From Patescibacteria group bacterium (GTDB lineage: Bacteria; Patescibacteriota; Saccharimonadia; Saccharimonadales; JAZKJC01), in NCBI GenBank assembly GCA_040384565.1, contig JAZKJC010000003.1, forward strand, positions 87,195-151,194: a stretch of DNA of 64,000 nt. Reading direction: 5' to 3'. Every line of letters begins with the position of its first letter. Positions within the stretch are counted from its first letter, which is position 1. This document shows positions 7,601 to 33,515 of the stretch, piece after piece. The notes below the pieces were generated by a model. It worked only from the letters and a program-made list of their open reading frames with translations, was not told the DNA's origin and did no database searches. Position numbers and translations under genes: made by a program.

Positions 7601-10600
7601 TCCGCCAGTTCCGGAAGTAATGGTAATGTTTCCACCATTTGCACCTGACCCAGCATTGGTACCGTTATATCCCTGCGAGCCTGCTCCACCAACACCAGTA
7701 GTTAAGCTAAATGCGCCGCCAGCACCACCATTATCACCACCAAAAGTATTAATAGTACCACCTCCCCCGCCAGCGCCGGTAGTAACAGATAGTGCTCCGC
7801 CCACACCACCCACGGCACTAATAGAGTTGAAGCTAAGTCCGCCCTGCCCACCTGAACCCGTTGCAAGTGTCAGGACGCCGCCATTGCCACCGTTCATGCT
7901 GCCGACAGCTTGACCAGCCGACCCGCCATTACCAGATTGTAAACTTATAAGGCTGCCATTACCGCCAGCTGATCCGGCAACGCTAGCTCCATTTCCTCCA
8001 AACACCTGTAACACAGGTGTAGCAGCAGCTCCTGCAGTTGTAGCTGATGGCCCATCAACCTGGAGCATGGAACCTGGTGTAGAGGTGACGCCTATGCCAA
8101 CCCGGCCATTCTGATCAATCACAAACGGTGTGGTGTCACCTGAACTATCATCAACCCGCAGAGCATACCCTGTACCCAGGCTATTAATAAACATACCCCC
8201 GAAGGCACCAGTGTTTAGTTGGTCTACAGTTAATGGGTAGGTGCTATCTGAGCCGGAAGATGCAGGATTACGGATAATTATTGAGTCATCAGCTGTTGTC
8301 AGGGCAACAATAGCATCACTGCCGTCAGCGTCAGTGTTATAGGCAGATTGAAGAGTTGATGCAGCAGATATACAGTCTCCCCACGCGCTGTTTTCAAAGC
8401 AGCGGAACTTATTGGTGTTGGAGTTATAGTACGATGCGCCATTGACGCCAGTGGGATCACCGGCAGTGTTTTTTGTGTCTAGCACTAGTAGAGCAGCGGT
8501 GGCATCGGCGGTTGTATCGCCAATATAAATTCTAGAGTTTGTTGTATCTATCTGGAACAGTTCGTTGCCAGCAGTAGTCGACTGAACTACAAAGGCGGTG
8601 GTGGAGTTGGTCTGGTTGCGGAAGGTAGTAGCACCACCGTCAGCAACCTTTAGAACATCTTGGGCTGTAGTGGATGTGTCAGTTACCTTGAAAAGATCGG
8701 TGGAACCGGTCGAACTGACATGAAGAAGGGCACCAGGGGTGGATGTACCGATCCCCACATTGCCTCCGCTCGCCTGCATAGTAATATTGCCATAAGCGCC
8801 AGTCTGGCCGCTGTTACAGGATCCGCCACATCCGTCTCCTCCTCCTCCTCCTCCTACACCTGTTTGAATATTTATATTTCCTCCAGCTCCTCCGTCGGCA
8901 CCATCAAGCCCTGTACCTGCTCCGGCACTGCCTCCTTGCCCGCCTGCGCCGCTAGTTATATTAATAGCGCCACCTAAAGCACCAACGCCTCCACCGGCAA
9001 CGCCATCTGTACCATTACCGCCAGCTCCACCTGTCCCGCCGGTAAGCGTTAGTGCTCCTCCTGCTCCTCCTGTTTGCCCAAGTCCTCCGCCGGATACTCC
9101 ACCCACACCACCTGTTCCTGAAAGCATTGCAAGCAAACTGCCAGCACCACCAGCACCGGTTGTACCATTACCGCCAGTACCACCCGTGACTTGCAGGGTT
9201 TGGACGGCAGCCGCGCCAGCTGTGGCTTGGTTTGGACCAAGGATATGTAAAATTGAGGTTGGACTAGCCAGTCCAATACCCACATTGCCCGCATTATCTA
9301 TAATAAACGGTGTGCTGTCAGTGTCGGTGCCGTCATCGTTAACCCTTAGGGCATAGCCTGAGCTACCGCCAGCACTAGTTAGGAGTAAGCCGCTCTTGCT
9401 AGCGCCCGTGGCAAGTTGGGTCACCTTTAGCACGAAGTCGCTATCCGAACCACTGGCTGCCGGATTAGAAAAGATTAGTGAATCATCAGCTGTAGTCAGG
9501 GCAATCGTGGCATCAGAGCCATCAGCATCGGCGTTGTAAGCACCTTGGAGAGTAGAAGCTGAGGCGCTTGTAATACAATCCGCCCAGGCGCTATTTTCAA
9601 AGCAGCGGAACTTGTTGGTGTTAGAGTTGTAGTAGGTGGCACCATTGACACCAGTTGGGTCGCCGGCAGTGTTCTTGGTGTCAAGCACCAGTAGAGCGCC
9701 GGTGGCATCGGCTGTAGTGCTGCCGACCTGCAGACGTGAGTTCGTAGTGTCGGCTACTAGCAAGTTGGTACCAGCGGCGTTTTGGATCTGGAAGGCGGTG
9801 GTGGAGTCGGTTTGGTTGCGGAAGGTGGTGGCTCCGCCATCAGCGATATCAAATACATCCCTGGCTGTCGCGGTCGTGTCAGTAACTCTAAGGAGTGAAC
9901 TTCCTCCGCCAGTTCCTGAGACATGGAGCAGCGCGCTGGGGCCAGAGAGCCCTATGCCGACCCGACCAGCTGTAACTGTAGAGAACAGTATATTGCCGGG
10001 AGTACCGGAGGTAGTGCCGCCATCAATATATACATTGCCACCATTCGTACCATTGCCACTAGCACCGCCCTGAATTCTTACGTTGCCACCCGGTGACACA
10101 CCGCTGCCACCACTGCCACCATTTAGGTTTAGGTCACCGCCTGTGCCACCGGCGTTAGCACTGCCAGCTTGAACTGTTAAATTATAACCGTTACCACTGG
10201 ATGCTTGGGCTACGCTTATGGTGCGGTTAGCGCCTTGGCTCAGGGTGTGGTTACCGGTTGAGATAAGGTTACCACTGGCTAGGATATTGCCTGTGCTATC
10301 GACCTGGAATTGGTTTGAGGCACCGACACTTAGCATTGATGCTGGGGCTGTAGTTCCGATGCCCAGGGATCCGCTTTGATCAATCCGTGCGCGCTCAGTA
10401 GTTGAGCAGCCGTTACAGCGGGTGGCGAAAACCAAGGCGTTGGAGTCAGTTCCAGTCCGAACAGCGCCGATGGTGGCATTGCCGGAGTTGGCCGCGGCAC
10501 TGGAGGCAAAGCTAATGCCGACGAAGCCAGTTGAGTTAGTGTTGGTATTACGAATGGTTAGACCCTGCATTAAGGACGTTGTAGTATAAGCTGCCGCGCC

Positions 10601-13600
10601 GGTGTCAGCCGTAATGTATGCCGAATTCGCACTAGTAGATAGGACTTCGAAGGCAGCGTTGGGATTAGAAATGTTTATACCCACTCGGCTTCCGGTGATG
10701 TTTACTACACCATTGGTGGTCTGTAGATTTATGTTGCCATTCACTCCATCGCTGTTACCGCCCGTACCTTGCGCACCAGCCTGCAACGTAATGTTGCCGC
10801 CGTTGGGTCGAGCAACTAAGTTGCTACTGTCGCCGCCGTTGCCAGCAGTGATTGAAATATTTCCTCCGTTGCCACCAAAGTTACCGCTTGAGCCATTTCC
10901 GCCTGTGCCACCGCTGAGTACTAGATCTGCGCCAACGCCCCCAGGCCCGCTTGAGCCATTGCCGCCCGTACCGCCAACCACGCGCAAGGCAACTGGTGCA
11001 GCGCCACCAGTCCCAGCATTGTTGCCGTTTGCACCAGCCACATGTAGTGTAGCGGTTGGGTTGGTAGTCCCTATGCCGACGTTGCCACCAGCCCCCTGCA
11101 AAACCAAGTTGCCCGTGCTAGATAAATTCCCATCACTCAAAGTTGTGCTCCCTGCCCCCGTCACTACCCCGCCCAGGAAGTAGCCCTGGAAGTAGCGGTT
11201 GGTGTCGGTACTATAGGCTGAACTTGTCGCACCAATGCTTTGAGCGTTGACCTTAGTGATGGTTATATCAGCATCGTAGCTGACGGCTGGAGAAACCGTT
11301 AGGGTGGTAGTGCCGCCACCTGAGACAATACGAGTGTAGTAATCCTGGCCAGCGTTATTGATCCAGATGATGTCGTTGTTGGCAAAGCTGCCAGCCGCGT
11401 CAATAGTGACGGTTGTAACGTTAGTACGGGGTGTAGACTCAGTATTGCCGGTTGTGCCGGTGGTAGTAACGTTGCCTTGGACAAAGCCACTGGAATCAAC
11501 CTTGAAGAGGTCACCGGAGCCGACTGTCAGAAGCGCTGCCGGTGAGGCATCACCGATGCCGACGTTGCCCAATGCCGTAGTTCCGTCATGAGCGAGAATT
11601 ACGTTACCGTTACCTCCTGCAGCTGATCCGCCCGCCACATACACATTATTTCCGGAACCTATTGCCCCGCCATTACCGCCTCTTAATATAAGCCTCCCTG
11701 GTGTTCCGCCGGTGTTAGCACCTGCTACAATAGTAAGGTTACCTCCGCTATTTCCACCCACAACAATCGATCGGTCTACTCCGCCACCAAAGGTAAGATC
11801 AGCAGCTAATGTAGTCGTACCGATCCCCACCTGTCCATTTTGATCAATCACAAACGGTGTGGTGTCACCTGAACTATCATCAACCCGCAGAGCATACCCT
11901 GTACCCAGGCTATTAATAAACATACCCCCGAAGGCACCAGTGTTTAGTTGGTCTACAGTTAATGGGTAGGTGCTATCTGAGCCGGAAGATGCAGGATTAC
12001 GGATAATTATTGAGTCATCAGCTGTTGTCAGGGCAATGATGGCATCTGAGCCATCGGCGTCGGCATTGTAGGCGGATTGGAGGGTTGTCGAGCTTGCACA
12101 GTTATTCAGCGTTAAAAGACAGAAAGTATCTGTAGTGGCTGAGCTATTGGGAATAGTGTAGGTCCTGGAGGCAGTGGGGTCGGCTGCTGTGATGGTGAAG
12201 TTATTAGCGTCATTTGTTGTGCCCTCAAACTTCAGATCGCCGGCGCTGGTGACACCGAACTTGTCATTATTACCGACGGTTAGTAAATAGGCTGGGCTGG
12301 TGTCGCCGATGCCGACGTTGCCACCAAGAAATTGAGCAACATAGGAATTGCCGGTTGCATTAGTTGGGGCATTCACCGTCAAACCATAGGCATTGGTGGT
12401 AATGCCCGCAGCACCAACCGAAAAATTTTGAATCAGTAGCGCGTGTGAGTTTGTGATGGTGGCGTTAGAACCTGTTCCTGGCGGGCCGGTAATTGCAGCA
12501 GTGGCAGCATTGGTAATAGTGCTGCTGCCGGTAAAGTTATAGGTTGGAGCCTGTATCACGAATGCACGTTGCGTAGCTAGGGCTCCGGTGGCAAATGATA
12601 CTGAACGGGATAGGTCAAAATCAACATCAATTGACTCGGTGGAGGCGGTTAGGCCGGTATGAGCACCTGCCCTTACCCGCAGTGCCAAGGGAGTCCCAGA
12701 AGTAGCCACCTGCTGCAGGACGTGCAGAGTGGCATTCGGGGTATTTGTGCCTATGCCGACTTTGCCAATCGCGGCAGCTGCACCAATGTCATAGGCCAAA
12801 ATGGTATTGCCGTGTAGCGTACCAACCACATCGGTCCCCCCGTACAGATAGGCATTTCCGCCGTTGCCGCCTGAAATTCCGCTGTTGCCGCCATGAAGGT
12901 CCAAATAGCCGCCGGCTGCCGGACTGGTGGGCCCAAAACCCTTGGCCGCATGAATGCCCAAATTGCCACCGGTTTGCCCACTGGCCCCAACTGACGGCGG
13001 TAAGATGGTGATAACCCGATTGCCATTGCCAAAAGTCAGGGCTTGGCTGGGATTTTCCAGCGCCGTCATGGCGATGCCGACCCGGCTATTAGTCGTATCA
13101 ACTACCAGCGCCTTCTCTCCGGCGGTTGCAAGCACCTGGAAAGCGGTGGTGGAATTGGCTAATTGATTCTGCAAGGTGGTATGGCCATTACGATTGACGG
13201 TAAAAGAAGCGGAGCCAATACCGCCGGCATCATTATCACTCACTAACTGCAGGAGGTTGCTGCTAGTGCGGGCATTAACCGTCAACACCGTTTCACCGAC
13301 ACCGGAGTTATGTCCGGTTAAGACAGTCAGGCCGTCATTCACAGCAAGATTAGTGCTATCCCACAAACTAACCCCAGTAAAACCACCGCTGACACTGATG
13401 TTAAAGGCGTCAACCCCAGCGTTTTGAACTGAAAATTTACCATTCGAACCACTAGCAATATTGACGAAAAAACTGCTATCGGTAGTGGTATTGGCCAGTG
13501 TAACCAAAAGGTTGCGAGCGTCAGTTGTGGTAATGGTATTGCCGGCGTTGTAGGCAGCTTGTAACGTTCCGCCGGTACCGGTGCCGAAGCAGTTACCTAG

Positions 13601-16600
13601 TGATAATAAGCAAAAAGTATCGTTGCTGGTAATAATAGGGACATCGACTATACGGTTGGCAGCCTGATTAAGACTGCGAATACTCAAAGTTTGGCCACTG
13701 CCATCATGCAGAGCCAATGAACCTTGTAACGCCGCTGTACCAACAGTGGCAGTGGCACCCTGAACTGCTAAGGTACCGGCAATGGTAGTATTGCCACCGG
13801 ACGTCACGTCAAAGTTGGTGAAGTCTATGACTGCCGTGGTGCCTTGCAACGTCTGGGCAGCCAAATCAATACCCCCACCAGCGACAATCTGGTTATTGAA
13901 CGTCTTAACACCAGCAAACGCCTGAGCACCAGTGGTAACAGCACCGGCTTCGGTGGCAGAAGCATTGCCAATAGCTAATGTAATATCATCTGGGTTTGTT
14001 ACAACGTTCAAAGTCCAAGTGACAGACGCCGACGTACCAGTGGCAGCCGTACTGAGGAAATTAGCCCCCGTTGCTCCAGTTCCGTTAACAGACACATCGT
14101 CACCCGTGCCGGTACCGTCAGTGGCACAGATCCAGGTGTTGCCAGTGGTTTCGTACTTCAGGACTTCGCCGTTAGCACAATCAATTAGAGATAGGCCATT
14201 GCCGTCAACTTCCAGACCTTTGCTGGCTTGGAGTGTCAGGGCGATGTCATTAGCATTCGCTACAATACCGCCATTGGCCGAAGCCACGTTTAGGGTTAGT
14301 ACTCCAACTGTACCACCGCCTGTTAAGCCGGAGCCAGCCGTGACACCAGTGGTGGCATGGCTAGCGACATTGCCGCTGGTCACAACCGTGCCGCCCTCAT
14401 TCAAGGTAAATGTCTGATCAGCCGCCAGATCGGCAACATCCAGAATGGCGTAGAAAGCACCGGACGATTCACGAATCTTCAGCTCTGAGCTGGAGTTATC
14501 CAGAGTAATATCAAAGGCACCACTTTGCAGCCAGTCAGCCGTCAGGTTACTAAGCGCAATCGTCGGCGTACCGCCTTCAGTGTTAGAGGTTCCAGATATA
14601 CCGTTCCCGGCGGTAATTGTGGCTACATAATTGCCATTTGTATCTGTACCAAGATCAATCGTGCCGACACTGACCACCCCGGAGCCGTCGACTTCCAGAA
14701 AGCCGTTTGTGAGGCTTGAGAAAGTGGCAGTACCGCCGACAGTTATGCCGCCGGTGCCTTGGAGGAGTCCTGAGCCGGCATTAACGCCAACTGCCGTGAC
14801 TGCACCGGCACTACTGACATCAAAGTTGGTAAAGTCAATGACAGCCGTGGTACCTTGCAGAGTTTGAGAACCTAAGCTAATACCCCCACCAGCGACGATT
14901 TGGTTGTTGAAAGTCTTAACGCCGGCAAATGTCTGGGCGCCAGTGGTGACAGCTCCTGCCTCAGTGGCCGAGGCGTTACCAATAGCTAGGCTAATGTCAT
15001 CTGGCGTAGAGGCTCCGACGAGCGTCCAGGTAGTGGCCGTAGAAGTACCGGTCGCGGCCACGTTGAGGAAGTTAGCATCATCTGCAGCTGTGCTGTTGAC
15101 GCTAATGTTATCGCCTGAACCGCCACCGTTATCGGCAGCGCAGGCCCATTGGTTGGAGCCGTTATATTTAAGGACCTCGCCACTACTACAATCAATCAAT
15201 GACAAGCCGCTGCCGTCGACTTCCAGGCCTTTGTTGGCTTGGATTGTTAACGTTATGTCATCAGCATTTACAACGATTCCACCATTACCGGAAGCAACCG
15301 TCAGCGTCGCGTTACCGGAAGCTGCGCCGCCAGTTAGACCAGCTCCGGCAGTAACATCAGTGATCACACCGCTGACTTCGCCTTCTGTAATGCCGCCGTC
15401 TAAGACCTCTAGTTCGACGCTTGTGAGTGTTGCACCTGAGGTAATGATACTGTTGGCACCAATGCTTAAATTACTCGTTAACGTCAGGCCGGCAAACTGC
15501 GGCGTTGCGGCTGTGCTGATGCCTTGTATTGTATTTATAACACCACTTGCTGCTGAGAAGTTCGTGGCGTTGAAGGCGGCAATACCTTTAGTTGTGCCGT
15601 CTGCCGCCGCATCATCAATGGTAATAACGTTACTGGAACCCGTGGCGTTATTGATAGTCACAGCCGGGCCAGTTTGACCGTCAATACTTGTCAGACCGCC
15701 ACCGCCACCACCGCCTAAACAGGCATCCCAGAACAGCGTGCCTGAGCCATCTTGGGCCTTGAGACATTGGTTAGCGCTACCAACGGCACCGGGCAATAGT
15801 AGTGAATAGCTGGTACTCACATCAGGCAGATTCAAAGTAATAGTCTCTCCGTCACCGTCGTGCAATACAATCGATGCGCCTTGGGTAATCGTACCGAGTG
15901 TGGCACTGCCGCCTTGAACGATGATGTCAACACTTGTGGTTACATTAGTGCCATCATCAGAAATAGTCGAATCGACGATATTATTACCGCCTACCCCGAA
16001 TTTACTCAGTTGGTTTTGGGTACCGCTACCGGTGATACCGCCGCCGGCGCCGGCGCAGTTGCCACTATCCAAACAGATTGTGCCGGTACCGGTCGTGTAA
16101 TTAGGCAAGGTGTAGGTTCGGTCAGCTGTCAGGTCACCGACGTCTAGCGTGCCGTAGAAGGCCCCAGATGATTCCCTAATAGATAATTCACTGGCGGCGT
16201 TATCCAGCACGATGTCAAAGGCGCCAGTCTGGGTCCAGTTAGCCGTCAGATTACTGAGGCCCAGCGCCGCCGTCCAGCCCTCACCGGGCGTCCCCGTAAC
16301 TGCAATACCGTTGCCGCCGGTGGTGCTGGCCTGATAGTTCCCAGCCGTTTCAGTCCCCAGATCAACTTCCGTACCAAAATTGTTGGTCACGGTGATGCTG
16401 CCGCTGGCGTTACTGATAGTGATCCCCGCCCCTTGGGTAAGAGTCGCTAGGGTATAGCCCGTTCCATTACCGATAAGCAACTGGCCATTGGCGGCAGCAG
16501 AACCATTCACACCAGTCCCGCCATTACCAACCGGCAGGATACCGGTGACTTCGGCACTGGCCAGATCGACGCTTGTACCAAGTGTGGTTTGCAATGAGCC

Positions 16601-18760
16601 GCTGCTGATCGTCAAACCGGTGCCAGTCAGATCGGTGAAGGCATCGCCATTGAACGTAAAGGTGTCGCCGGTCTGAACAGCCAAGTTGCCGTTGGCCGTC
16701 AGCGTGCCGGAGAATGTTCCAGTGCCCGTGACGTCAAAATTACCGCCAAGCAGGCTCAGGTTCCGCGTGTTGTCCAGCTCAAGCGTTGAGCCGTTTTGGA
16801 GTAACCAGCTATCGGCGATAGTCTGGGCACCGCTGAAGTAAGCAATCCGGTTTGTGTTGCCCGTGCCTGTGATGCCGCTGGCCGCATCGCCGTTGTCGTC
16901 TTGACAACCAATGTTACCGGATGCATCTGTCGTCAATACACCACCATTAGCAAAGGTGGTACAGTTTAGTCCTGTTAAGCGTACTTGATCAGCACTGGTC
17001 AGGACAATGTCATTGCCGGCGCCATTGCTGGTAATGGTGGTGGTTGAACCTTGCAATAGAGCCGTTTGGCCAGTTGCCCCAACCGTTAAGGCACCGCCTG
17101 GAGTAATGCTTAACGCCCCGCTGCTTTGCAATAGCGGCGTTGTCACACTTGAGGAAAACGTAGGGTTGTTGATCGTATTAATGCTGTAGGTGCTATTGGC
17201 ACCGCCATCGGAACCGATTAGATTGCCGGTAGGCGTAATAGCTCGTTCACCTGTCAGTGTACCGTCATTGCCTACGGTCACATAGGCTGCACTGTTGGGC
17301 GCCCCGGTGGTATCGCTATCTGTATCACAAGCCCACTGGTTAGCACCATTATATTTGAGGATTTGGTTGAGTCCACAATCGATTAGCGACAGGCCGTTGC
17401 CGTCAACTTCCAAGCCTTTATTGGCTTGTATCGCAAGCGTAATGTCATCAGCGTTTACCGTAATTCCATTTCCGGCACCGATGTTGAGGGTTGTGGCTGC
17501 GCCAAGCGCGACACTACCGCCATTCGTTAGACCGCTACCGGCTGTAACTGTCAGTGAAGAATTGACCAGCTCGAGGTTAGAGATTGTGGGACCCAGTAGT
17601 GACACATTGGCACTAAGCCGTAGATCATTAAGTGTTCCGCTAGCCATATTGCTGGCATTAAGCGCCGTTAAGGCCGATCCATTGCCAGAAAAGGCCACCG
17701 CACTGATATTGCCACTAGCGCTCAAGTCTCCAGCGACTGATACAACACCAAGCGCCTGTGACAATAGGGAATTCTCAATATTTGTAGCTGAGGTAAAGAC
17801 TGGAATTGTGCCAGCAGTTCCGCCACCAGTAGTCACCCCAGCCCCAGCGCCACCGTCATCATTGGCACAAATAACCTGGCCAGAACCATTAGTGGTTAGC
17901 GTACCGCCATTGGTCAGGACACTACAGTTCAGTGGCAATGTTAGCATTCCGCTCATTGACAGATTACCGTTGAGCGTCAAACCAGCAAAGGTTGGTGAGC
18001 TGAGCTGCGCCAAATCCTGGGGCCCAGCCAAGGTAATTGTGCCGTTAGCGGTTGATACTGTAATTTGATTGGCTGTCCCCTGGACAGTGACCACGCCGAC
18101 TTGATTGTTGACCAGACTGGAGGCTGGAATTGCCGGCACAACCACCTGGCCAAGCCGGTTTTGCAGCAAAGCAAGAGTAGCGTTGGTTTGATTGAGAGCA
18201 GCCTGAGTCGCTAGGTTACAGTTATTACTATCCAAACAGAGCGTGCCCGAAGCGTTAGGTAAAATAAACGTTTGGTCGGCTGTGGAATTTTGCGTTTTTA
18301 GAGTGGTCGCGTAGTTGCCATTTGAGAATCTCAACTCGCCGCGGGTCGCCAGGTCACCGTTTACCAGCAATGATTCACGGGCAGTGTTTAGCTCTTTGGG
18401 GATTGTCGATAAATTGGCGTCTTTGAGAGAGATGTCTTGGGGTGTAATTGTCGCTTGCTGGGCTAGTTGATTATCCGAGCCGCGCCGGGCAAAGAACAAT
18501 ATGCTTGCCCCCGTAATTAGTATTACAAATATGGTGATCCCGATTGAAACAATCATGGCCTTTCGGCGGGAGAAAGAAAATCCTCGAAAGTTTGACTCGG
18601 AAGAATAGGTTTGAGCCTGAGAAACAACATTTTGTTCATGCATTTCTAAGGACTCTGCTGGTGTTGGTATTTGAGCACTGTCGTAGAAACCCCCAGAAAT
18701 GGGAGTACTTACCGAGTCGTTTTGACCTGTATTGGCGGTATTAAACCGCTGTTCATCCAT
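4601..18760 (-). CDS. Giant (4,719 aa) membrane-anchored surface protein built from tail-fibre-like modules
   Basis: From the ORF track. A ~66-aa N-terminal tail precedes one TM (AMIVSIGITIFVILITGASILFF, ~18488-18556). Fibre motifs include GILPVGNGGTG and 3x GLEVDGxGLSLIDCxxGEVLKYNGSNQWAC. A repeated ~430-aa super-module runs TTAFQIQ..DTTNSR..LVLDTKNTAGDPTGVNGAxYYNSNTNKFRCFENSAW..TLQxAYNxDADGSDA..TPFVIDQNGxVGIG..GGxGGxG blocks..GNVGIGTxxPxAxLHV. The C-terminus has an ADLAEWIKY..LIGVVS..GRVPVKV block (~5245-5640) resembling a Peptidase_G2-type chaperone domain, and the last ~90 aa look like an H-type lectin. Confidence 0.9.
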   Translation of the reverse strand: MDEQRFNTANTGQNDSVSTPISGGFYDSAQIPTPAESLEMHEQNVVSQAQTYSSESNFRGFSFSRRKAMIVSIGITIFVILITGASILFFARRGSDNQLAQQATITPQDISLKDANLSTIPKELNTARESLLVNGDLATRGELRFSNGNYATTLKTQNSTADQTFILPNASGTLCLDSNNCNLATQAALNQTNATLALLQNRLGQVVVPAIPASSLVNNQVGVVTVQGTANQITVSTANGTITLAGPQDLAQLSSPTFAGLTLNGNLSMSGMLTLPLNCSVLTNGGTLTTNGSGQVICANDDGGAGAGVTTGGGTAGTIPVFTSATNIENSLLSQALGVVSVAGDLSASGNISAVAFSGNGSALTALNASNMASGTLNDLRLSANVSLLGPTISNLELVNSSLTVTAGSGLTNGGSVALGAATTLNIGAGNGITVNADDITLAIQANKGLEVDGNGLSLIDCGLNQILKYNGANQWACDTDSDTTGAPNSAAYVTVGNDGTLTGERAITPTGNLIGSDGGANSTYSINTINNPTFSSSVTTPLLQSSGALSITPGGALTVGATGQTALLQGSTTTITSNGAGNDIVLTSADQVRLTGLNCTTFANGGVLTTDASGNIGCQDDNGDAASGITGTGNTNRIAYFSGAQTIADSWLLQNGSTLELDNTRNLSLLGGNFDVTGTGTFSGTLTANGNLAVQTGDTFTFNGDAFTDLTGTGLTISSGSLQTTLGTSVDLASAEVTGILPVGNGGTGVNGSAAANGQLLIGNGTGYTLATLTQGAGITISNASGSITVTNNFGTEVDLGTETAGNYQASTTGGNGIAVTGTPGEGWTAALGLSNLTANWTQTGAFDIVLDNAASELSIRESSGAFYGTLDVGDLTADRTYTLPNYTTGTGTICLDSGNCAGAGGGITGSGTQNQLSKFGVGGNNIVDSTISDDGTNVTTSVDIIVQGGSATLGTITQGASIVLHDGDGETITLNLPDVSTSYSLLLPGAVGSANQCLKAQDGSGTLFWDACLGGGGGGGLTSIDGQTGPAVTINNATGSSNVITIDDAAADGTTKGIAAFNATNFSAASGVINTIQGISTAATPQFAGLTLTSNLSIGANSIITSGATLTSVELEVLDGGITEGEVSGVITDVTAGAGLTGGAASGNATLTVASGNGGIVVNADDITLTIQANKGLEVDGSGLSLIDCSSGEVLKYNGSNQWACAADNGGGSGDNISVNSTAADDANFLNVAATGTSTATTWTLVGASTPDDISLAIGNASATEAGAVTTGAQTFAGVKTFNNQIVAGGGISLGSQTLQGTTAVIDFTNFDVSSAGAVTAVGVNAGSGLLQGTGGITVGGTATFSSLTNGFLEVDGSGVVSVGTIDLGTDTNGNYVATITAGNGISGTSNTEGGTPTIALSNLTADWLQSGAFDITLDNSSSELKIRESSGAFYAILDVADLAADQTFTLNEGGTVVTSGNVASHATTGVTAGSGLTGGGTVGVLTLNVASANGGIVANANDIALTLQASKGLEVDGNGLSLIDCANGEVLKYETTGNTWICATDGTGTGDDVSVNGTGATGANFLSTAATGTSASVTWTLNVVTNPDDITLAIGNASATEAGAVTTGAQAFAGVKTFNNQIVAGGGIDLAAQTLQGTTAVIDFTNFDVTSGGNTTIAGTLAVQGATATVGTAALQGSLALHDGSGQTLSIRSLNQAANRIVDVPIITSNDTFCLLSLGNCFGTGTGGTLQAAYNAGNTITTTDARNLLVTLANTTTDSSFFVNIASGSNGKFSVQNAGVDAFNISVSGGFTGVSLWDSTNLAVNDGLTVLTGHNSGVGETVLTVNARTSSNLLQLVSDNDAGGIGSASFTVNRNGHTTLQNQLANSTTAFQVLATAGEKALVVDTTNSRVGIAMTALENPSQALTFGNGNRVITILPPSVGASGQTGGNLGIHAAKGFGPTSPAAGGYLDLHGGNSGISGGNGGNAYLYGGTDVVGTLHGNTILAYDIGAAAAIGKVGIGTNTPNATLHVLQQVATSGTPLALRVRAGAHTGLTASTESIDVDFDLSRSVSFATGALATQRAFVIQAPTYNFTGSSTITNAATAAITGPPGTGSNATITNSHALLIQNFSVGAAGITTNAYGLTVNAPTNATGNSYVAQFLGGNVGIGDTSPAYLLTVGNNDKFGVTSAGDLKFEGTTNDANNFTITAADPTASRTYTIPNSSATTDTFCLLTLNNCASSTTLQSAYNADADGSDAIIALTTADDSIIIRNPASSGSDSTYPLTVDQLNTGAFGGMFINSLGTGYALRVDDSSGDTTPFVIDQNGQVGIGTTTLAADLTFGGGVDRSIVVGGNSGGNLTIVAGANTGGTPGRLILRGGNGGAIGSGNNVYVAGGSAAGGNGNVILAHDGTTALGNVGIGDASPAALLTVGSGDLFKVDSSGFVQGNVTTTGTTGNTESTPRTNVTTVTIDAAGSFANNDIIWINNAGQDYYTRIVSGGGTTTLTVSPAVSYDADITITKVNAQSIGATSSAYSTDTNRYFQGYFLGGVVTGAGSTTLSDGNLSSTGNLVLQGAGGNVGIGTTNPTATLHVAGANGNNAGTGGAAPVALRVVGGTGGNGSSGPGGVGADLVLSGGTGGNGSSGNFGGNGGNISITAGNGGDSSNLVARPNGGNITLQAGAQGTGGNSDGVNGNINLQTTNGVVNITGSRVGINISNPNAAFEVLSTSANSAYITADTGAAAYTTTSLMQGLTIRNTNTNSTGFVGISFASSAAANSGNATIGAVRTGTDSNALVFATRCNGCSTTERARIDQSGSLGIGTTAPASMLSVGASNQFQVDSTGNILASGNLISTGNHTLSQGANRTISVAQASSGNGYNLTVQAGSANAGGTGGDLNLNGGSGGSGVSPGGNVRIQGGASGNGTNGGNVYIDGGTTSGTPGNILFSTVTAGRVGIGLSGPSALLHVSGTGGGSSLLRVTDTTATARDVFDIADGGATTFRNQTDSTTAFQIQNAAGTNLLVADTTNSRLQVGSTTADATGALLVLDTKNTAGDPTGVNGATYYNSNTNKFRCFENSAWADCITSASASTLQGAYNADADGSDATIALTTADDSLIFSNPAASGSDSDFVLKVTQLATGASKSGLLLTSAGGSSGYALRVNDDGTDTDSTPFIIDNAGNVGIGLASPTSILHILGPNQATAGAAAVQTLQVTGGTGGNGTTGAGGAGSLLAMLSGTGGVGGVSGGGLGQTGGAGGALTLTGGTGGAGGNGTDGVAGGGVGALGGAINITSGAGGQGGSAGAGTGLDGADGGAGGNINIQTGVGGGGGGDGCGGSCNSGQTGAYGNITMQASGGNVGIGTSTPGALLHVSSTGSTDLFKVTDTSTTAQDVLKVADGGATTFRNQTNSTTAFVVQSTTAGNELFQIDTTNSRIYIGDTTADATAALLVLDTKNTAGDPTGVNGASYYNSNTNKFRCFENSAWGDCISAASTLQSAYNTDADGSDAIVALTTADDSIIIRNPASSGSDSTYPLTVDQLNTGAFGGMFINSLGTGYALRVDDSSGDTTPFVIDQNGRVGIGVTSTPGSMLQVDGPSATTAGAAATPVLQVFGGNGASVAGSAGGNGSLISLQSGNGGSAGQAVGSMNGGNGGVLTLATGSGGQGGLSFNSISAVGGVGGALSVTTGAGGGGGTINTFGGDNGGAGGAFSLTTGVGGAGSQGYNGTNAGSGANGGNITITSGTGGIGGSACPGCEDPDGPGVNGGNGGSGGTITIQGGTGGTGGPAGTGTAGTNGSYGNVILQSSGGFVGIGDATPDAKFDIDATFSPATTGTTTNTGSGLTVSNTVNKTAGTDTTYGQQLTVTRTGATGGTINTYGLDIQATGDTGGTSTLTGLNVNVSGADTNYAALFNGGYVGIGTTTPSALLSVGTGAASNFKVNADGDITSSFTTLNGSTTANGAGTNSTTLILTSATNFDVGNYVQVDPTGANTCSGAVTVCYAKITAIATNTLTISPALTWDNGAAVVEMHIPELGGVDLTQSLTNRYGRGYFIDGIVTGNGSTYFTDKSIQQTVGGSTFNFLDNGNTSTINFGTSATTTNFSGSVTTNTLNVLGPNQPADSGAAAVQTLNVVGGIGGSGADSGNGGTGSSISLASGAGGAGGSGIQFTGNNGGNGAAAGDITISGAIGGAGGNGGEAYYEEAGCGGYCGPGGNGGNGSNGGRLVLQGGAGGNAGSGASGSINGTDGTAGLFGNITLQASGGNVGIGMSSPSRKLDVTGTWGGNVSTTATSDSATTSTVSTAALAYYVQSTDTTGDCNTADKTFNITGLPSSEGTFAYIVSKATDNNCTSNSVDVTVQINGSTIGTVTAANTVNGSVTENYTVAYINGTWRIVGLNSGTAQAANGSDTADLAEWIKYTGTKPQPGDVLTVGDSTVSVKQSTLAYDSKLIGVVSTTPHTVMGTDDGQSVVLALTGRVPVKVSLEGGAIQVGDKLTSSSTPGVAMKASGAGRIIGIALDAYDGTQTGNKVMVQLGIGYNSEPTTDIQGNSATFNTLTILGDATINNLTVTNTITTKDLTVTGTATIQNLTVSGVSTLAELTVTGNAKVQGTLTVTKLVIKDTLIIESHIISRGTAPQAVLGAASGTGTGTPIDPATMPTIALDGTDTTGTISVRTATASNRGVLATIKFNKAFERTPKIVISANDELSLLLQVYVRKTADGFELVAINPAADNTTYNFDYVILAAAPTP
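8112..8307 (-). repeat. Intragenic 196-nt repeat, copy A (100% identical to 11841-12036)
   Basis: Base-by-base comparison of the two stretches. Both encode ..TADDSIIIRNPASSGSDSTYPLTVDQLNTGAFGGMFINSLGTGYALRVDDSSGDTTPFVIDQ. Confidence 0.85.
11841..12036 (-). repeat. Intragenic 196-nt repeat, copy B
   Basis: Identical to 8112-8307. The flanks diverge immediately on both sides. Confidence 0.85.
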
Positions 18761-18875: not shown

Positions 18876-18894
18876 TGAATACATTTATTATATC
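18876..18894 (-). promoter_or_regulatory. Candidate extended -10 promoter of the 4,719-aa gene with a conserved box
   Basis: Minus strand reads TGATATAAT (TATAAT = 18892-18887) followed by AAATGTATTCA, ~125 nt upstream of the ATG at 18760. The same TATAAT-WW-ATGTATTCA box is at 2810-2828. Confidence 0.35.
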
Positions 18895-18939: not shown

Positions 18940-19758
18940 CTAGACCCAAAGCACCGCATAAACGGCCGCCACCCCAAGAAGTAAAACGGCAACAGCAATT
19001 GCTGCTACCCTGAGAAGTTCGCTTCGAATCGCTTTACGCGCCAACGGATTACGTCCAAGGGCAGTAATGGCGCTGGAAACCGCACCGTATATGATCCCAC
19101 CTTCAGCAATCAGCACAATGATGAATATAATTAGCGCAATCAGAACTCGGATTTCACCGACGTCTTTGCCAACTATGGAGCGTCCGAGTTTGGCCAAAGC
19201 TGAATCACTTTCAACTATCCCGATGTTCACGCCTTGTCGGTTAAGATTGATGCTAATCTTGCTAATGTTCGTATCTTTGGCTTGGCCATTATCCTGATAG
19301 GAATAGACTGTTTCCGTAATTGACCCAGTTGCAGCTAGAGCAATGACAGTCGTGGGAACATTTGCCGACAATTTCATCAAAACCCCTTTGAGAGGTGATA
19401 AAACCAAGTTGTCGCCTTGGCTAACTGGACCGTTAATGTCACTCACATACGCCTCGGTCTGACCCTCACTTTCCACCAGGACTTTTGCCACACCCGACCC
19501 AACAGTGACTAAACTCGTATCAATCGTTGTGACAATACCAACCACTCGATCACTGCTGGCTTGTGTTGCACGCTCAACTTTAGCTTGGCTTAAAGGGTCA
19601 AGGCTCAGCGCAACAACCATACCGGCCTGCAAACCCGTATCATCCGTAGTGTAGCCCCGAGCAATAGCCAAAACATGCGCTTGAACCACACTGATAACTG
19701 CTAACGTCAATACTAGAAGTGCTAACGATCTAATTTTTTTGATTTTTGAGCCGTACAT
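18940..19758 (-). CDS. Small envelope protein: signal peptide, a barrel domain related to the giant-protein C-termini, and a C-terminal two-TM hairpin
   Basis: MYGSKIKKIRSLALLVLTLAVISVVQA is the signal. GLQAGMVVAL..RVVGIVTT..AKVLVESEG..VSQGDNLVLSPLKGVLMK aligns by eye to PGDVLTV..LIGVVST..GRVPVKV..IQVGDKLTSSSTPGVAMK of the giant protein. The last ~75 aa form two hydrophobic helices around ALGRNPLARK. Confidence 0.7.
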   Translation of the reverse strand: MYGSKIKKIRSLALLVLTLAVISVVQAHVLAIARGYTTDDTGLQAGMVVALSLDPLSQAKVERATQASSDRVVGIVTTIDTSLVTVGSGVAKVLVESEGQTEAYVSDINGPVSQGDNLVLSPLKGVLMKLSANVPTTVIALAATGSITETVYSYQDNGQAKDTNISKISINLNRQGVNIGIVESDSALAKLGRSIVGKDVGEIRVLIALIIFIIVLIAEGGIIYGAVSSAITALGRNPLARKAIRSELLRVAAIAVAVLLLGVAAVYAVLWV

Positions 19759-19844: not shown

Positions 19845-20153
19845 TTATGCGATTTTGGTAATTTTGAGCTGAGTTTTATGCTGACGATGGCCTCGCACGG
19901 TGTGAACACGTTTTTTAGCCTTATAGCGTATAGAAATGACTTTGTCGGCCTGAGTATCGGCATTGATAATTTCGGCCGTAACCTTAGAAGCAGTTACTTC
20001 CGGAGATCCGATGGTGGTTTTATCACCGTCAATGACAAGAAGTGGCACGAAAGACGTGGTTTTATCTGAAGTTTTTAGAAGCTCAACATCAATAGTGTCG
20101 CCTTCAACTACAAGATATTGCTTGGATCCAGTGGTGATAACTGCTTTTTTCAT
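19845..20153 (-). CDS. rplU: 50S ribosomal protein L21
   Basis: MKKAVITTGSKQYLVVEGDTIDVE..RYKAKKRVHTVRGHRQHKTQLKI. Typical L21 length and motifs. Confidence 0.9.
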   Translation of the reverse strand: MKKAVITTGSKQYLVVEGDTIDVELLKTSDKTTSFVPLLVIDGDKTTIGSPEVTASKVTAEIINADTQADKVISIRYKAKKRVHTVRGHRQHKTQLKITKIA

Positions 20154-31150: not shown

Positions 31151-31621
31151 TTATGCAACAGGTTTAACTTTGCGTTCGCGGATTTGTAAAAGTTCGTTTT
31201 CGAACCCGGCAATATCCTTGAACCTTCGGTAAACACTGGCAAACCGTACATATGCAACTTCATTTAGGGGTGCTAGTCGCTCCATAACCATTTCGCCGAT
31301 TTGCTTGGTAGCCACCTCTTGGTCTCCGCAAGCGTAGACCTGGTGTTCTATGTCTGCAACAAGCCGTTCAAGTTGCAAACTGGTTATAGGAGTCTTTTCA
31401 CATGCTCTATACAGTCCGGCTAGCAGCTTATCCCGGTTAAAGAGCTCACGGACACCGTTATTTTTGATAACGATGATCTGTGGGCGTTCAATCCGCTCGT
31501 AAGTAGTAAACCTAAAGCCGCAGTCGGGACAAGCCCGTCGGCGCCGAATTGCTTCACCTTCACTTACGTCACGAGATTCTATAACCTTTGTATCTGCGGT
31601 AGAACATTGGTTGCATTTCAT
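31151..31621 (-). CDS. nrdR: Transcriptional repressor NrdR
   Basis: Start trimmed to MKCNQCSTADTKVIESRD..CPDCGFRFTTYE (zinc ribbon) followed by an ATP-cone. AAGGAG SD sequence. Confidence 0.9.
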   Translation of the reverse strand: MKCNQCSTADTKVIESRDVSEGEAIRRRRACPDCGFRFTTYERIERPQIIVIKNNGVRELFNRDKLLAGLYRACEKTPITSLQLERLVADIEHQVYACGDQEVATKQIGEMVMERLAPLNEVAYVRFASVYRRFKDIAGFENELLQIRERKVKPVA

Positions 31622-31649
31622 GCTAGTTCTCCTTCTTGTACGAGACCCT

Positions 31650-31787
31650 CTCATTTTGCACATTTTGCTCCAAAACCTGTGACTCCGATGCTCGCTGTAC
31701 CATAAAGTACGGATGCGCTTCGGTGCCCCGCCTGTCTTTCCGACAGGACGGACAGGTCGGTTTTGAATCAAACTGCACTAAAATGCG
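31650..31787 (-). repeat. Dispersed imperfect-palindrome element, copy C (in the nrdR 5' leader)
   Basis: Minus strand reads CGCATTTTAGTGCAGTTTGATTCAAAACC..GCACCGAAGCGCATCCGTACTTTATGGTACAGCGAGCATCGGAGTCACAGGTTTTGGAGCAAAATGTGCAAAATGAG. It is colinear with 36834-36939 on the plus strand and carries a 34-nt extra hairpin. Confidence 0.65.
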
Positions 31788-31968
31788 ATGATCTTTGGTC
31801 TCCCGGCTTAAGCGCAAGAGACACGTGATACAAATTATTTGTTCATTCTGAATGTGCTATGGCTCTATATTTTTTCCCTACATATAGCGTCTATACTTAA
31901 GATCATAGTCCCATATACAGTGTTTTGCAATAAGGAAATCGGTGTATTATTTACTAATTTTGTATCTG

Positions 31969-33321
31969 TTATTTATCGGCATTTTCTGATTTTTCAGGGG
32001 TAGAATCTTTTTTGTCATCTTTTTGCTGACGGCGTTTTGTTAGGCGGCGCAAGAATGAGGGCTTTTCCAGCTCATCTTCTTCTTCGGCGCTAAACACTGC
32101 TCCGTGGGTTTGAGGTGAGGTTTTTGGCGAGACTTTATTCTTGTCCGTATTTTTATTAGCATTAGATTCATCGTGATTGTAGTCATCTGCTTTATCGTCT
32201 AAGGCCCAGATGTTAGGCATAGGTGTGTCCTGATGCAGGTCACTGGCTTTATCGGCGTCATTTAAGTCCATATCAATATCACTCATATCTTGGTCATCAT
32301 CTCTTGTAGGTGCTTGCGGGGTGAATGGAGAGGTTGCAGTCTTGGCGCTCTTTCTATTAGCAAAGTAGGCGTCATCAAAGCCTGTAGCCACTACGGTTAT
32401 TATAATTTCGCCCTCCAGATCAGGGCTAATGGTTGCACCGAAGATAATATTGGCTTCCGGATCGGCCGCCACGGTTATAGTCTCCGCGGCCTGGTTGATT
32501 TCATGCATCGACATATCGCTGCCACCAATGACGTTAAACAAAATGCCCCGGGCACCATCAATAGAAACTTCAAGTAGTGGCGATTCGATAGCTTGTTGAG
32601 CAGCATGAGCGGCCCGATCTTCTCCGGAAGCTCTACCAATACCCATTAAAGCCGAGCCAGCATGGCTCATCACGGCCTTTACATCTGCAAAGTCTAGATT
32701 AATAAGACCGTGAACGGTGATAAGATCAGAAATACCCTGTACACCTTGTCTAAGCACATCGTCAGCAACTTTAAATGCTTCTAGTAATGGTGTCTGACGA
32801 TCAATAGTCTGCAGGAGTCTATCGTTGGGGATTGTAATGAGGGTGTCTACGGACTTACGGAGGTTCTCAATTGCTATGTCGGCATTTCTACGACGTTTTT
32901 CACCCTCGAAAGCAAAGGGTTTTGTAGCAAAACCTACTACAAGCGCACCAGCATCTTGGGCACTTTGAGCAACTATGTGGCCAGCACCGCTGCCTGTACC
33001 ACCACCCGCGCCTAAAGTTACGAACACCATGTCAGCACCCGTAACCGCTTGCTTGATTTCATCAATGGATTCCTGGGCCGCTTTTTGGCCTACTGTAGGG
33101 TCAGCTCCCGCACCCAGACCCCTGGTAGCATCACGCCCAATATGGATTTTTGTCTGTGCTTTTGAGTGGTGCAAGGCTTGAGCGTCGGTATTTACAACTA
33201 TAAACTCTACACCTTCAACGCCTGCTTCAACCATACGGTTAATTGCCGCGCCACCGGCGCCGCCAACTCCTATTACTTTAATTCTGGCAAACGTTTCAAT
33301 TACGGGGTTAACTTGGGGCAT
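31969..33321 (-). CDS. ftsZ: Cell division GTPase FtsZ
   Basis: [13 protein letters not shown] and GGGTGSGAG tubulin signature, with a long acidic/basic C-terminal tail. Confidence 0.95.
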
Positions 33322-33511: not shown

Positions 33512-33515
33512 ACTT

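Follow-up and report, generated by a model that had tools for sequence, protein, structure and literature searches.

A conserved membrane-anchored barrel protein encoded beside giant fibre genes in Saccharibacteria, with a hairpin resembling F-type c subunits

The window analysed herein, i.e., the whole stretch of Patescibacteria DNA of 64,000 nucleotides, carries an open reading frame (ORF) with an ATG start at 18940-19758 (-), encoding a small envelope protein of 272 aa (hereafter X), as assessed from the ORF itself, at least 352 orthologues and an AlphaFold2 model. The gene lies between rplU, which encodes ribosomal protein L21 on the same strand 86 bp upstream (19845-20153 (-); Pfam L21p, 7.4e-23), and the gene for a 4719-aa giant protein (giant 1, 4601-18760 (-)) that starts 179 bp downstream. 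Both the 272-aa ORF and its position between rplU and the giant gene are thus real, as a preliminary description of this DNA had it, and the same holds for its remark that rplU is followed by this gene in place of the usual rpmA, as no L27 gene occurs in the whole window. No terminator-like site was detected in the 86-bp gap between rplU and X, and the 179-bp gap between X and giant 1 contains a TGATATAAT box, so giant 1 may have a promoter of its own. An ATP synthase operon in the window was considered and rejected, the ORFs at 31151-37793 being nrdR, ftsZ, ftsA, map, adk and yqeY, and atp genes are absent from the 64-kb window. A second copy of X near the other giant gene of the window (giant 2) was likewise rejected, with no further family member in the window, whose boundary cuts giant 2 off before its N-terminus. 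Searches of Pfam, NCBIfam and PHROGs with X returned no significant family, with no Pfam threshold reached and a best PHROG match at E 0.21, and a profile of the whole protein found nothing at E≤10 among PDB sequences. Our literature searches retrieved no paper describing this protein family or the operon linked to its relatives (see below).

Giant 1 begins with an N-terminal tail in the cytoplasm, crosses the membrane by a single helix and continues as a very long fibre. Its N-terminal anchor module (residues ~60-255, 17996-18583 (-)), delimited by tblastn and alignment, shows, besides the membrane helix, three motifs (LLVNGD, LPNxSGTxCLDxNNC and PQDL) in an alignment of 27 distinct sequences. 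Towards the other end of the protein lies a beta-barrel (residues ~4380-4516, 5213-5623 (-)) identified by Pfam, by profile and by its model, with an intact TA/DLAEW motif (the slash marking the cleavage point), a Phage_cement_2 score of 25.1 bits (gathering score 24), and a model (pLDDT 93) that aligns with 3gqh (TMq 0.64) and 3suc (TMq 0.66) and has 8pkh and 8hdt as its top matches. Giant 2 carries an equivalent barrel (residues ~4358-4495, 50398-50811 (-)) that has lost the DLAE motif and scores 111.7 bits with a profile that includes this very sequence; just upstream of it lies a Peptidase_S74 intramolecular chaperone domain (50983-51168 (-); PF13884, 1.3e-17), and the protein matches PHROG tail-fibre families. 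The barrels had been placed at the tip of the fibres, which is not where they are, as they lie ~200-340 residues before the C-terminus of the giants, within a module that looks like a cleavable intramolecular chaperone. IS200-like genes were observed downstream of giant 1.

The layout of X itself is a signal peptide, a barrel of the G2/cement type, an amphipathic helix and a two-helix membrane hairpin, in a model with pLDDT 81. An early idea of an NfeD-like OB-fold was dropped after fold searches returned G2/cement proteins. The signal peptide covers residues 1-31 (19666-19758 (-)), and orthologue conservation supports a predicted signal-peptidase I site at V-L-A31/I32-A-R-G-Y, where all 35 orthologues have Ala at position -1 and 34 of the 35 have V, A, T or S at position -3, and where the AIARGY motif varies little or not at all. 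The N-terminus thus has the appearance of a typical signal peptide that would be cleaved at this point. The ectodomain (residues 32 to ~175, 19234-19665 (-)), defined by profiles and Foldseek, consists of the beta-barrel plus an extra beta-hairpin at 150-171. At the C-terminus, the two-transmembrane hairpin anticipated in the preliminary description (residues 202-272, 18943-19155 (-)) is borne out by AlphaFold2 helices 202-234 and 238-271, both modelled at pLDDT of about 87-94, and model, Foldseek and hhalign concur in likening it to the c subunit of F-type ATPases. It is also the most conserved part of the protein (mean distance 0.35 vs. 0.55 for the ectodomain). Its turn, G235-R236-N237-P238 (19045-19056 (-)), is invariant in both subfamilies described below and would face the cytoplasm if one goes by the signal peptide and by the positive charges that the turn carries. 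Two further positions stand out by conservation, namely E219 (19102-19104 (-)), a carboxylate midway along the first helix of the hairpin and 17 residues ahead of R236, which is conserved at ≥90% in the window's subfamily and absent from the sister subfamily, and R250, which is Arg or Lys in nearly all orthologues and a candidate partner of E219 in a salt bridge within the hairpin.

The ectodomain of X had been aligned by eye with the barrels of both giants, and the likeness is real, although its significance emerges through profiles only. By BLASTP, X matches giant 1 weakly (25 bits, E 0.027, residues 57-132 vs. 4405-4479) and has no equivalent match to giant 2. Two profiles were compared, A1 being built from 35 X orthologues and A2 from giant-type barrels only, with no small proteins. 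A1 scores 31.3 bits on the giant-1 barrel, where the best of 1000 shuffles reaches 9.7, and 9.9 bits on the giant-2 barrel, a value that one of 1000 shuffles also attains. A2 scores 43.2 bits on the X ectodomain (top shuffle 10.3) and detects every X orthologue in the 31 loci of the window's subfamily (E 1e-16 to 4e-9), and the two profiles align with each other over 136 columns (hhalign, 97.8%, E 1e-12). In addition, the AlphaFold models of the X and giant-1 barrels match the same PDB entries, 8pkh and 8hdt. On the strength of these profiles, the X ectodomain is homologous to the barrels of both giants.

The X barrel belongs to the Peptidase_G2/Phage_cement_2 fold, which is that of the phi29 gp12 autochaperone and of capsid cement proteins. 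Foldseek with the X model retrieved 8pkh_FJ (E 3.8e-5) and 8hdt_G (1.5e-4) from the PDB, and “Preneck appendage protein” (7e-8) and “Preneck appendage protein barrel” (5.5e-6) from BFVD. X and 34 orthologues have no match to PF11962 (Peptidase_G2) at E≤1, and X has no match at the gathering score of PF09956 (Phage_cement_2); in the giant-type barrel family, 10 of 38 sequences match the former and 7 of 38 the latter, and A2 finds phi29 gp12 in the PDB at E 1.4e-3. The DLAE of the A2 profile is matched to the very start (residue 1) of 3gqh, the fragment of phi29 gp12 produced by cleavage, which begins DFAEYF. X lacks the autocleavage motif D-[LF]-A-E (cut just before Asp) and has AIARGY at the aligned place, the catalytic D..E being replaced where the family has ADLAEx[YF], and its predicted mature N-terminus and the G2 cleavage point are no more than about one residue apart in the profile alignment. 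Unlike PF11962 domains, the stand-alone X is not found at the C-terminal end of a trimeric fibrous protein, a location that the barrels of giants 1 and 2 do have, albeit with 200-340 further residues behind them.

X is a member of a large, unannotated Saccharibacteria family. Its orthologues (at least 352 at 50-70% identity) are all about 270-280 aa long, and its profile matches 1854 clusters (50% identity) at E≤1e-3, the best 150 of which are nearly all 250-350 aa long, with most matching the profile end to end. This number of clusters, nearly all of one length class among those listed, points to strong purifying selection. It also bears on the idea that a prophage or tailocin has left its remains here, with X as a degenerate fragment of a tail fibre or capsid cement protein, for which one could cite the phage-type folds, the PHROG tail-fibre matches of giant 2 and the IS200-like genes downstream of giant 1. 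Against it, apart from the clusters, X itself finds nothing better in PHROGs than the match noted above, and the locus is a housekeeping one, conserved across many sampled Saccharibacteria, with ileS, rplU, the giant gene, ftsAZ and nrd genes as neighbors and other phage genes absent. We therefore consider a phage remnant extremely unlikely.

Co-occurrence of X with giant genes in related genomes, on which the preliminary description had staked its proposal of a partnership, was found to be strong. In the window's subfamily, sampled at 31 loci, a giant ORF follows X in 29, one exception being a contig that ends just past X; a family member with neither an adjacent giant nor an ATPase was seen at locus L031. 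An N-module of the giant-1 type lies directly downstream of X, at a distance of 100-900 bp, in 28 of the 31 (tblastn E 1e-18 to 1e-71), and locus L029 has a 2343-aa ORF instead. The gene order ileS-rplU-X-giant recurs in the first four long contigs and in most of the 27 genome loci, and the wider ftsA-ftsZ-nrdR-nrd-ileS-rplU neighborhood is conserved too. However, rplU is absent beside X at three loci (L013, L030, L031), and in most loci of the sister subfamily it is absent altogether, while the link to the giant is retained at two loci where the link to rplU is broken (L013, L030). The adjacency of X and rplU is thus lineage-specific and not essential. In Southlakia epibionticum, X and the giant are jointly absent from the ileS-L21-ParAB locus.

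The sister subfamily, in which the counterpart of X is called X', was examined at 46 loci with enough downstream sequence. At 21 of them X' is followed directly by a giant gene, and at 23 it is followed by ATPase genes, b, delta, alpha and onwards, with a giant N-module after epsilon in 15 of these 23; one locus (L105) has the order b-delta-alpha-gamma-beta-epsilon-X'-giant, and one has neither a giant nor ATPase genes after X'. Overall, 45 of the 46 loci were scored as keeping X' and a giant together, adjacent or parted by no more than an ATPase operon. Among the ATPase-containing loci of sufficient length, an N-anchored giant after epsilon or X' was identified at L032, L034-L037, L040, L041, L046, L049, L050, L053 and L054, and further at L068, L069, L088 and L105. 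The operon is tightly packed, with a 16-bp gap after X' and overlapping genes thereafter, and in the order X'-b-delta-alpha-gamma-beta-epsilon X' occupies the position of the c subunit. Its alpha, beta, gamma and epsilon proteins are F-type, the alpha and beta scoring below the NCBIfam cut-offs of the mycoplasma families, and OSCP is the top Pfam family of the delta-like protein in five of five cases. No gene for an a or c subunit is present in the X' operons or in the 1.36 Mb of loci, and canonical c subunits near the X' operons, considered as a candidate arrangement, were rejected with none in 117 loci. None of the 31 loci sampled from the window's subfamily contains an ATPase gene. Each of the six long X' contigs has its own set of upstream neighbors; five of them retain the stretch that runs from X' to the giant, and all six retain the one from X' to epsilon.

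These comparisons also address the reading that X is an unrelated envelope protein, its adjacency to the giant being inherited gene order and its barrel a common promiscuous domain. The conserved ftsA-to-rplU neighborhood would fit this, as would the member without a giant at L031 and a mirror-tree analysis in which the X ectodomain correlates with the giant N-module at r 0.71 and with rplU at r 0.58, a small excess. In small genomes with stable synteny, a conserved order of X and giant does not prove physical interaction. However, the pair persists amid the wholly different flanks of the six long X' contigs, it outlasts both the insertion of an operon between the two genes and the change of order at L105, each subfamily goes with its own type of giant N-module, and both genes are absent together at the Southlakia locus. 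Mere inheritance of gene order is, on this evidence, quite improbable.

What is conserved in the downstream giants alongside X is the N-terminal anchor module and not the barrel (27 distinct sequences), and the two subfamilies pair with two different conserved types of this module. The giant-barrel profile found a barrel in only some giants and none in 11 complete giants downstream of X. Hence the proposal of X as a partner of the giants gains from the pairing and loses the basis it had been given, i.e., the barrel shared by both proteins, and barrel-to-barrel contact as the reason for the pairing was rejected. For giants that have no barrel, a barrel supplied in trans would make sense, and X, as a free copy of the C-terminal intramolecular chaperone, could be a membrane-tethered chaperone acting in trans, which would sit on the outer face where the C-termini of the N-anchored fibre leave the Sec channel last, template C-terminal trimerisation and then be released, taking no part in the base of the mature fibre. 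The homology of its barrel to the phi29 gp12 autochaperone family and the position of its predicted mature N-terminus near the G2 cleavage point are both consistent with such a role, and phages have separately encoded fibre chaperones whose genes adjoin the fibre genes (PMC10579305). However, X is equally conserved beside giants that have a barrel or S74 chaperone of their own, as giant 1 does in the window and the giants near X at L117 and L073 do elsewhere, the conserved feature of its partners is the N-module and not the C-terminus, and both the invariant cytoplasmic GRNP turn and the ATPase operon between X' and the giant would be left unexplained. A chaperone in trans therefore appears unlikely to us.

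The hairpin was described beforehand as only loosely reminiscent of c-ring subunits, which underrates the resemblance in view of the invariant GRNP turn, of the place of X' in the operon and of the best match of the hairpin profile in the whole PDB, 9itj_H, which is an ATP synthase c subunit, albeit at E 0.31. Foldseek aligns the X hairpin with c subunits at TMt 0.72-0.86 (rmsd 1.4 at TMt 0.86), and hhalign aligns the two in register (P 1e-3 to 2e-3, probability 15-22%), with a score of 21.9 against a maximum of 15.9 in 200 shuffles, column shuffling being a lenient control for membrane helices. The GRNP turn aligns with the ARQP/ARNP of c subunits, and by residue count the offset of E219 from R236 equals that of A24 from R41 in E. 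coli c, whose sequence was confirmed as that of a c subunit. Pfam ATP-synt_C (PF00137) has no match at E≤1 in 35 family members, helix 2 of the hairpin carries no conserved acidic residue in either subfamily, and the ATPase-linked subfamily has no conserved hairpin carboxylate at all. The X hairpin thus resembles F-type c subunits weakly but in register, and homology is not established.

From this resemblance one could see the main role of X as that of a c-type subunit in the rotor or stator of an atypical F1-type ATPase, in which a ring of hairpins would bind gamma and epsilon via the RNP loops and the giant would be incidental or loosely related. X' directly before b-delta-alpha-gamma-beta-epsilon in 23 loci and directly after epsilon in one, operons and surrounding loci devoid of a and c genes, and E219 at the depth of E. 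coli c A24 all agree with that assignment, as do the topology, the RNP turn and the in-register profile match. On the other side, the link to the giant is the more constant one, as the 21 X'-giant loci and the full set of 31 loci from the window's subfamily all lack a nearby ATPase, helix 2 has no conserved carboxylate in either subfamily and the ATPase-linked one lacks any, and the homology to c subunits is statistically unproven. Moreover, the solved relatives of the ectodomain all form trimers, and a ring would fit only with 3n subunits. We regard a role chiefly as a rotor subunit as doubtful.

The reading we prefer, with a rough probability of 0.45, is that X is a conserved membrane partner, either a socket or an assembly platform, of the adjacent N-anchored giant fibre, a function suggested by the pairing, the architecture and the fold taken together. 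Signal peptidase would produce the mature N-terminus of X close to the point of self-cleavage in the phage domain, and the barrels would oligomerise on the membrane's outer face, three or a multiple of three together, as all solved relatives do. The hairpins would pack beside the membrane helix of the fibre, with the GRNP turn facing the cytoplasm, and the crown of barrels would grip the conserved membrane-proximal module of the fibre or, alternatively, nucleate trimerisation of the fibre on its exit from the Sec channel. Because the hairpin is c-like, X' lies in the c position and the giant gene follows the operon, the same socket would probably be the site at which a cytoplasmic F1-type ATPase couples to the fibre. 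A bolder extension, which we offer as speculative and on balance unlikely, is that Saccharibacteria have an ATP-driven, as yet undescribed machine for surface fibres, in which the X family would serve as rotor or socket in the membrane. In such a machine, a ring of c-like hairpins would be engaged from the cytoplasm by the F1-type motor that lacks a and c, the outer barrel crown of the ring would hold the N-anchored giant, and ATP hydrolysis would turn, tension or retract a host-contact fibre; the X-giant pair of the window would then be the same device with its motor encoded elsewhere or lost.

Patescibacteria, Saccharibacteria among them, spend their lives attached to bacterial hosts. To our knowledge, little has been established beyond type IV pili about how they hold and act on their hosts, and we know of no assigned partners for the giant surface proteins in which their genomes are rich. 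With X, these giants gain a conserved candidate partner of defined architecture, the barrel is identified as a phage-fibre autochaperone/cement fold, and an F1-type ATPase operon without a or c, bracketed by X' and giant genes, comes to light in the relatives. If the link between ATPase and fibre holds, it would open a way to test how contact with the host is powered in ultrasmall epibionts, and would represent a second, independent redeployment of a rotary ATPase. Even on a conservative reading, a family of 1854 clusters merits a name and a family model.

Among known systems, the closest in fold to X is the autochaperone of the phi29 pre-neck appendage gp12 (PF11962; 3GQH, 3SUC), whose barrel it shares, with homology traced via the giant-type barrels. 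Both have a free N-terminus at about the same structural position, and both are associated with very long fibrous proteins. X differs in being cellular and not viral, in lacking the catalytic D..E and in not being fused to a fibre; its gene stands on its own, and its product starts with a signal peptide and ends in a membrane hairpin.

Phage cement or decoration proteins are trimers that clamp onto the surface of another protein. Two of them (PF09956), Pam3 gp6 (8HDT) and the protein of Borrelia phage BB1 (8PKH), are the best solved structural matches of both X and the giant-1 barrel, and lambda gpD is a more distant case. Here, however, there is no capsid, and X is anchored in the membrane and carries an extra beta-hairpin and an extra helix. 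In Alteromonas phages, a small gene beside the fibre gene encodes “transient chaperone caps” with a proposed role in fibre trimerisation (PMC10579305). These are soluble and encoded downstream of the fibre gene, whereas X is a membrane protein encoded upstream.

With F-type c subunits (PF00137), X shares a hairpin of two helices whose ends both lie outside and whose R-N/Q-P turn is cytoplasmic, and its relatives lie directly before atpF-like and atpH-like genes, whereas X has an ectodomain of ~170 residues before helix 1, no carboxylate on helix 2 and no a subunit nearby. An analogy for the X' loci, and not for the window's subfamily, is offered by the “F1-like X0” ATPases of mycoplasmas, of which Type 2 powers gliding on giant surface legs and Type 3 is required for the MIB-MIP surface system (PMC3369863, PMC12994834, bioRxiv 10.1101/2024.06.11.597861). 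There too, in genome-reduced and host-dependent bacteria, F1-type alpha, beta, gamma and epsilon without a and c are clustered with novel membrane and surface proteins. The mycoplasmas belong to a different phylum, and the X' operon keeps b-like and delta-like subunits; the membrane partners of the mycoplasma motors are 3-helix and 12-helix proteins, whereas X' combines a c-like hairpin with a barrel.

The small envelope protein X (18940-19758(-), ATG start, 272 aa) is encoded between rplU (19845-20153(-), Pfam L21p 7e-23), located 86 bp upstream, and the 4719-aa ORF of giant 1 (4601-18760(-)), which begins 179 bp downstream, while a second giant of at least 4644 aa, giant 2 (49948-63882(-)), continues past the window end. 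The preliminary description had noted that rpmA does not follow rplU, and indeed no L27 (rpmA) gene was found in the entire 64-kb window, rplU standing alone. Related contigs share the larger gene order ftsA-ftsZ-nrdR-nrd ... ileS-rplU, which is also kept here. Among the 27 related genome loci, 24 are titled Saccharibacteria, Saccharimonadales or Saccharimonadia (the other three being labelled more loosely), and we therefore assign the source of the window to the Saccharibacteria. Neither intergenic gap (rplU-X or X-giant 1) holds a terminator-like site. A TGATATAAT box in the X-giant 1 gap (~18886-18894(-)) resembles an extended -10 element, and with such a box upstream the giant 1 gene may have a promoter of its own. 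Immediately downstream of giant 1 are two IS200-like Y1 transposase ORFs (3239-3778(-) and 3841-4455(-)), at the place where the related locus L001 has a 197-aa ORF and then the parA-parB pair.

X belongs to a large family with a defined architecture. Its signal peptide (residues 1-31) ends in an AxA-type site, with Ala at -1 in 35/35 orthologues and V/A/T/S at -3 in 34/35, and in the AlphaFold model a barrel with an extra beta-hairpin (up to ~residue 171) is followed by a short helix (187-196) and two long helices (202-234 and 238-271) joined by G235-R-N-P238. This C-terminal hairpin is the best conserved region. At least 352 orthologues, all without a Pfam domain, were found at 50-70% identity, and an exhaustive profile search extended the family to 1854 clusters (50% identity) at E<=1e-3, 323 of these at E<=1e-30; the best 150 of the 1854 are nearly all 250-350 aa long, and most align to the profile end to end. 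A second subfamily, X', of at least 1450 clusters at 90% identity, carries the N-terminal motif SQG[FY]. Several barrel glycines, an Arg preceding helix 1 and GRNP are invariant in X and X'. One 682-aa protein from the representative search (P0270) has a family member fused behind a ~420-residue multi-helix membrane domain, which may be real or a gene-calling artefact.

The barrels of X and the giants are homologous. The similarity, first proposed from an alignment by eye, is weak by pairwise BLASTP (giant 1: 25 bits, E 0.027, residues 57-132 vs 4405-4479) and is confirmed by profiles. A1, built from 35 X orthologues, scored the giant-1 barrel at 31.3 bits (best of 1000 shuffles: 9.7), and A2, built from giant-type barrels with no small proteins included, scored the X ectodomain at 43.2 bits (shuffle maximum 10.3) and recovered every orthologue in the 31 loci of the window's subfamily (E 1e-16 to 4e-9). 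Aligned to each other by hhalign, the two profiles matched at 97.8% (E 1e-12, 136 columns). The family member at L031, 30% identical to X, is matched directly by the giant-1 barrel (tblastn E 5e-7) and thus serves as an intermediate sequence. For giant 2 the proposed likeness holds at the profile level, with 9.9 bits by A1, a score reached in 1 of 1000 shuffles, and not by pairwise BLASTP, which gave no equivalent match.

The barrel belongs to the Peptidase_G2/Phage_cement_2 fold. Scanned alone, the giant-1 barrel matches Pfam Phage_cement_2 at 25.1 bits (cut-off 24), and of 38 sequences in the giant-type family alignment, 10 match Peptidase_G2 and 7 Phage_cement_2. The AlphaFold models of X (pLDDT 81) and of the giant-1 barrel (pLDDT 93) retrieve the same capsid cement proteins (8pkh and 8hdt, at 3.8e-5 and 1.5e-4 for X); the X model further retrieves 35 viral models at E<=1e-3, among them 'Preneck appendage protein', tail and tail-fibre proteins, and the giant-1 barrel matches 3gqh and 3suc (TMq 0.64-0.66) and the phi29 head fibre base. 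We take all these relatives to be trimer formers. Among PDB sequences, A2 found the phi29 pre-neck appendage gp12 (E 1.4e-3), and since residue 1 of the cleaved gp12 fragment in 3GQH starts DFAEYF, aligned to the DLAE of the barrel family, gp12 self-cleavage falls directly before that Asp. In giant 1 the G2-type self-cleavage motif, TA|DLAEW (residues ~4381-4386; 5606-5623(-)), is intact. The last ~340 residues of this giant, which take in the barrel, a stretch beyond it and an end weakly resembling an H-type lectin, may therefore be removed once folding is complete, by analogy with gp12. Giant 2 has two different chaperone modules in succession, with a Peptidase_S74 domain (50983-51168(-)) with the S-x4-K pattern (ISDARLK) lying directly upstream of the barrel (50398-50811(-)), which has lost DLAE. 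In X, the nearly invariant AIARGY after the signal site aligns to ADLAEx[YF] but lacks its catalytic Asp and Glu; the N-terminus would instead be freed by signal peptidase, within ~1 residue of the phage domain's own release point.

X is constantly paired with N-anchored giants. The order ileS-rplU-X-giant recurs in the long contigs and most genome loci, and in 28/31 loci the gene after X starts with a homologue of giant-1 residues ~60-255; at L029 the position after X is taken by a 2343-aa ORF instead. Besides a membrane helix, the conserved module (17996-18583(-) in giant 1) has three motifs, LLVNGD, LPNxSGTxCLDxNNC and PQDL, and both cysteines of C-x-[DST]-x-N-N-C, conserved in at least 90% of 27 aligned sequences, are probably linked by a disulphide bond close to the outer side of the membrane. 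The remainder of the downstream giants (1860 to >4600 aa) is variable, with Beta_helix/NosD or FG-GAP repeats, and a search with the giant-barrel profile found no barrel in 11 complete downstream giants of this subfamily. Docking was one of the partner roles suggested in the preliminary description; as a contact of barrel with barrel it therefore cannot be the conserved basis of the pairing. In one of the main rival readings, X would be tethered to the membrane and act in trans as a chaperone of the fibre's C-terminus. The expected co-occurrence of the two genes in relatives was borne out: Southlakia epibionticum (ileS-(NTP transferase)-L21-ParA-ParB-signal peptidase-LCP) has neither X nor giant and L001 (ileS-L21-X-giant-197 aa-ParA-ParB-signal peptidase-LCP) has both, which indicates that the pair is present or absent as a unit. 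A further main rival is inherited synteny without any X-giant interaction. Mirror-tree correlations (X ectodomain vs giant N-module r 0.71, vs rplU r 0.58) lend weak support to the pairing. Across these 31 loci ileS falls into two identity classes relative to the window copy (~40% and ~57-70%), pointing to two types of IleRS in the clade, or to a replacement.

In the sister subfamily (loci L032 and higher), about half of the loci have an F1-type operon without a and c between or beside the X'-giant pair. In 6/6 long contigs X' is followed, after 8-16 bp, by consecutive genes for a b-like protein (200 aa, one membrane helix plus coiled coil), a 160-aa protein (delta; OSCP the top Pfam match in 5/5 cases), alpha, gamma, beta and epsilon, and in 5/6 a giant N-anchored protein follows. 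By NCBIfam F1F0 cut-offs alpha, gamma and epsilon fall below and beta just above. A metagenome scan added 80 X' loci, and of the 46 counted, with at least 2.5 kb downstream, 23 have b, delta, alpha and onwards directly after X' (a giant N-module following epsilon in 15), one (L105) reads b-delta-alpha-gamma-beta-epsilon-X'-giant, 21 have X'-giant and lack any ATPase gene, and one has neither arrangement. The full set of 117 loci, covering 1.36 Mb, contained no a or c subunit gene, and the a/c-less operon (L032-L037, L040-L054, L068-L075, L088, L101, L105) is always joined to X' and in most cases to an N-anchored giant as well; Southlakia, unlike the X' loci, has an ordinary atpZ-a-c-b-delta-alpha-gamma... 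operon. With ileS and rplU a few kb upstream, L071, L113 and L117 share the window's chromosomal neighbourhood. The sister giants have their own conserved N-terminal module, and three carry the barrel ~150-300 residues before the C-terminus (L117 2380-2514/2685, L073 2753-2893/3042, L072 2664-2811/2977), which is not present in those of L071, L107 and L113.

The likeness of the hairpin to c-ring-type hairpins, loosely drawn at first, held for topology and for an in-register profile match, and not at the level of Pfam/HMMER thresholds, which no X family member reached. The topology fits an F-type c subunit, with the RNP turn invariant in the X family (Foldseek TMt 0.86, rmsd 1.4 Å), and X' relatives occupy the c subunit's place in the operon. 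Against eight sequences validated as c subunits, hhalign placed GRNP on ARQP in register (P 1e-3 to 2e-3), although with a probability of only 15-22%; the score of 21.9 exceeded the maximum of 15.9 in 200 column shuffles, which are lenient for membrane helices. Across the whole PDB the top match of the hairpin profile was the Chloroflexus c subunit (AIGRNPE, E 0.31). E219 of X precedes R236 by 17 residues, just as A24 precedes R41 in E. coli c, in which an Asp at A24 can replace D61. Unlike c, however, helix 2 of X and X' has no conserved carboxylate, and the ATPase-linked subfamily has none at all. The odds of homology are roughly even, and the hairpin makes a better case as a working likeness of c than as a member of the c family. 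The last main rival would make X a c-type subunit of the ATPase that is not tied directly to the giants.

Our preferred reading is that X would oligomerise via its barrel on the outer face of the membrane, next to the anchor of the fibre itself, and serve there as a socket or assembly platform for the fibre, and that any F1-type motor present would make contact at the cytoplasmic RNP turn of X. For the ATPase-linked form, the closest known system is the mycoplasma F1-like X0 ATPases, which power the giant legs used in gliding or are required by the MIB-MIP surface system (PMC3369863, PMC12994834, bioRxiv 10.1101/2024.06.11.597861).
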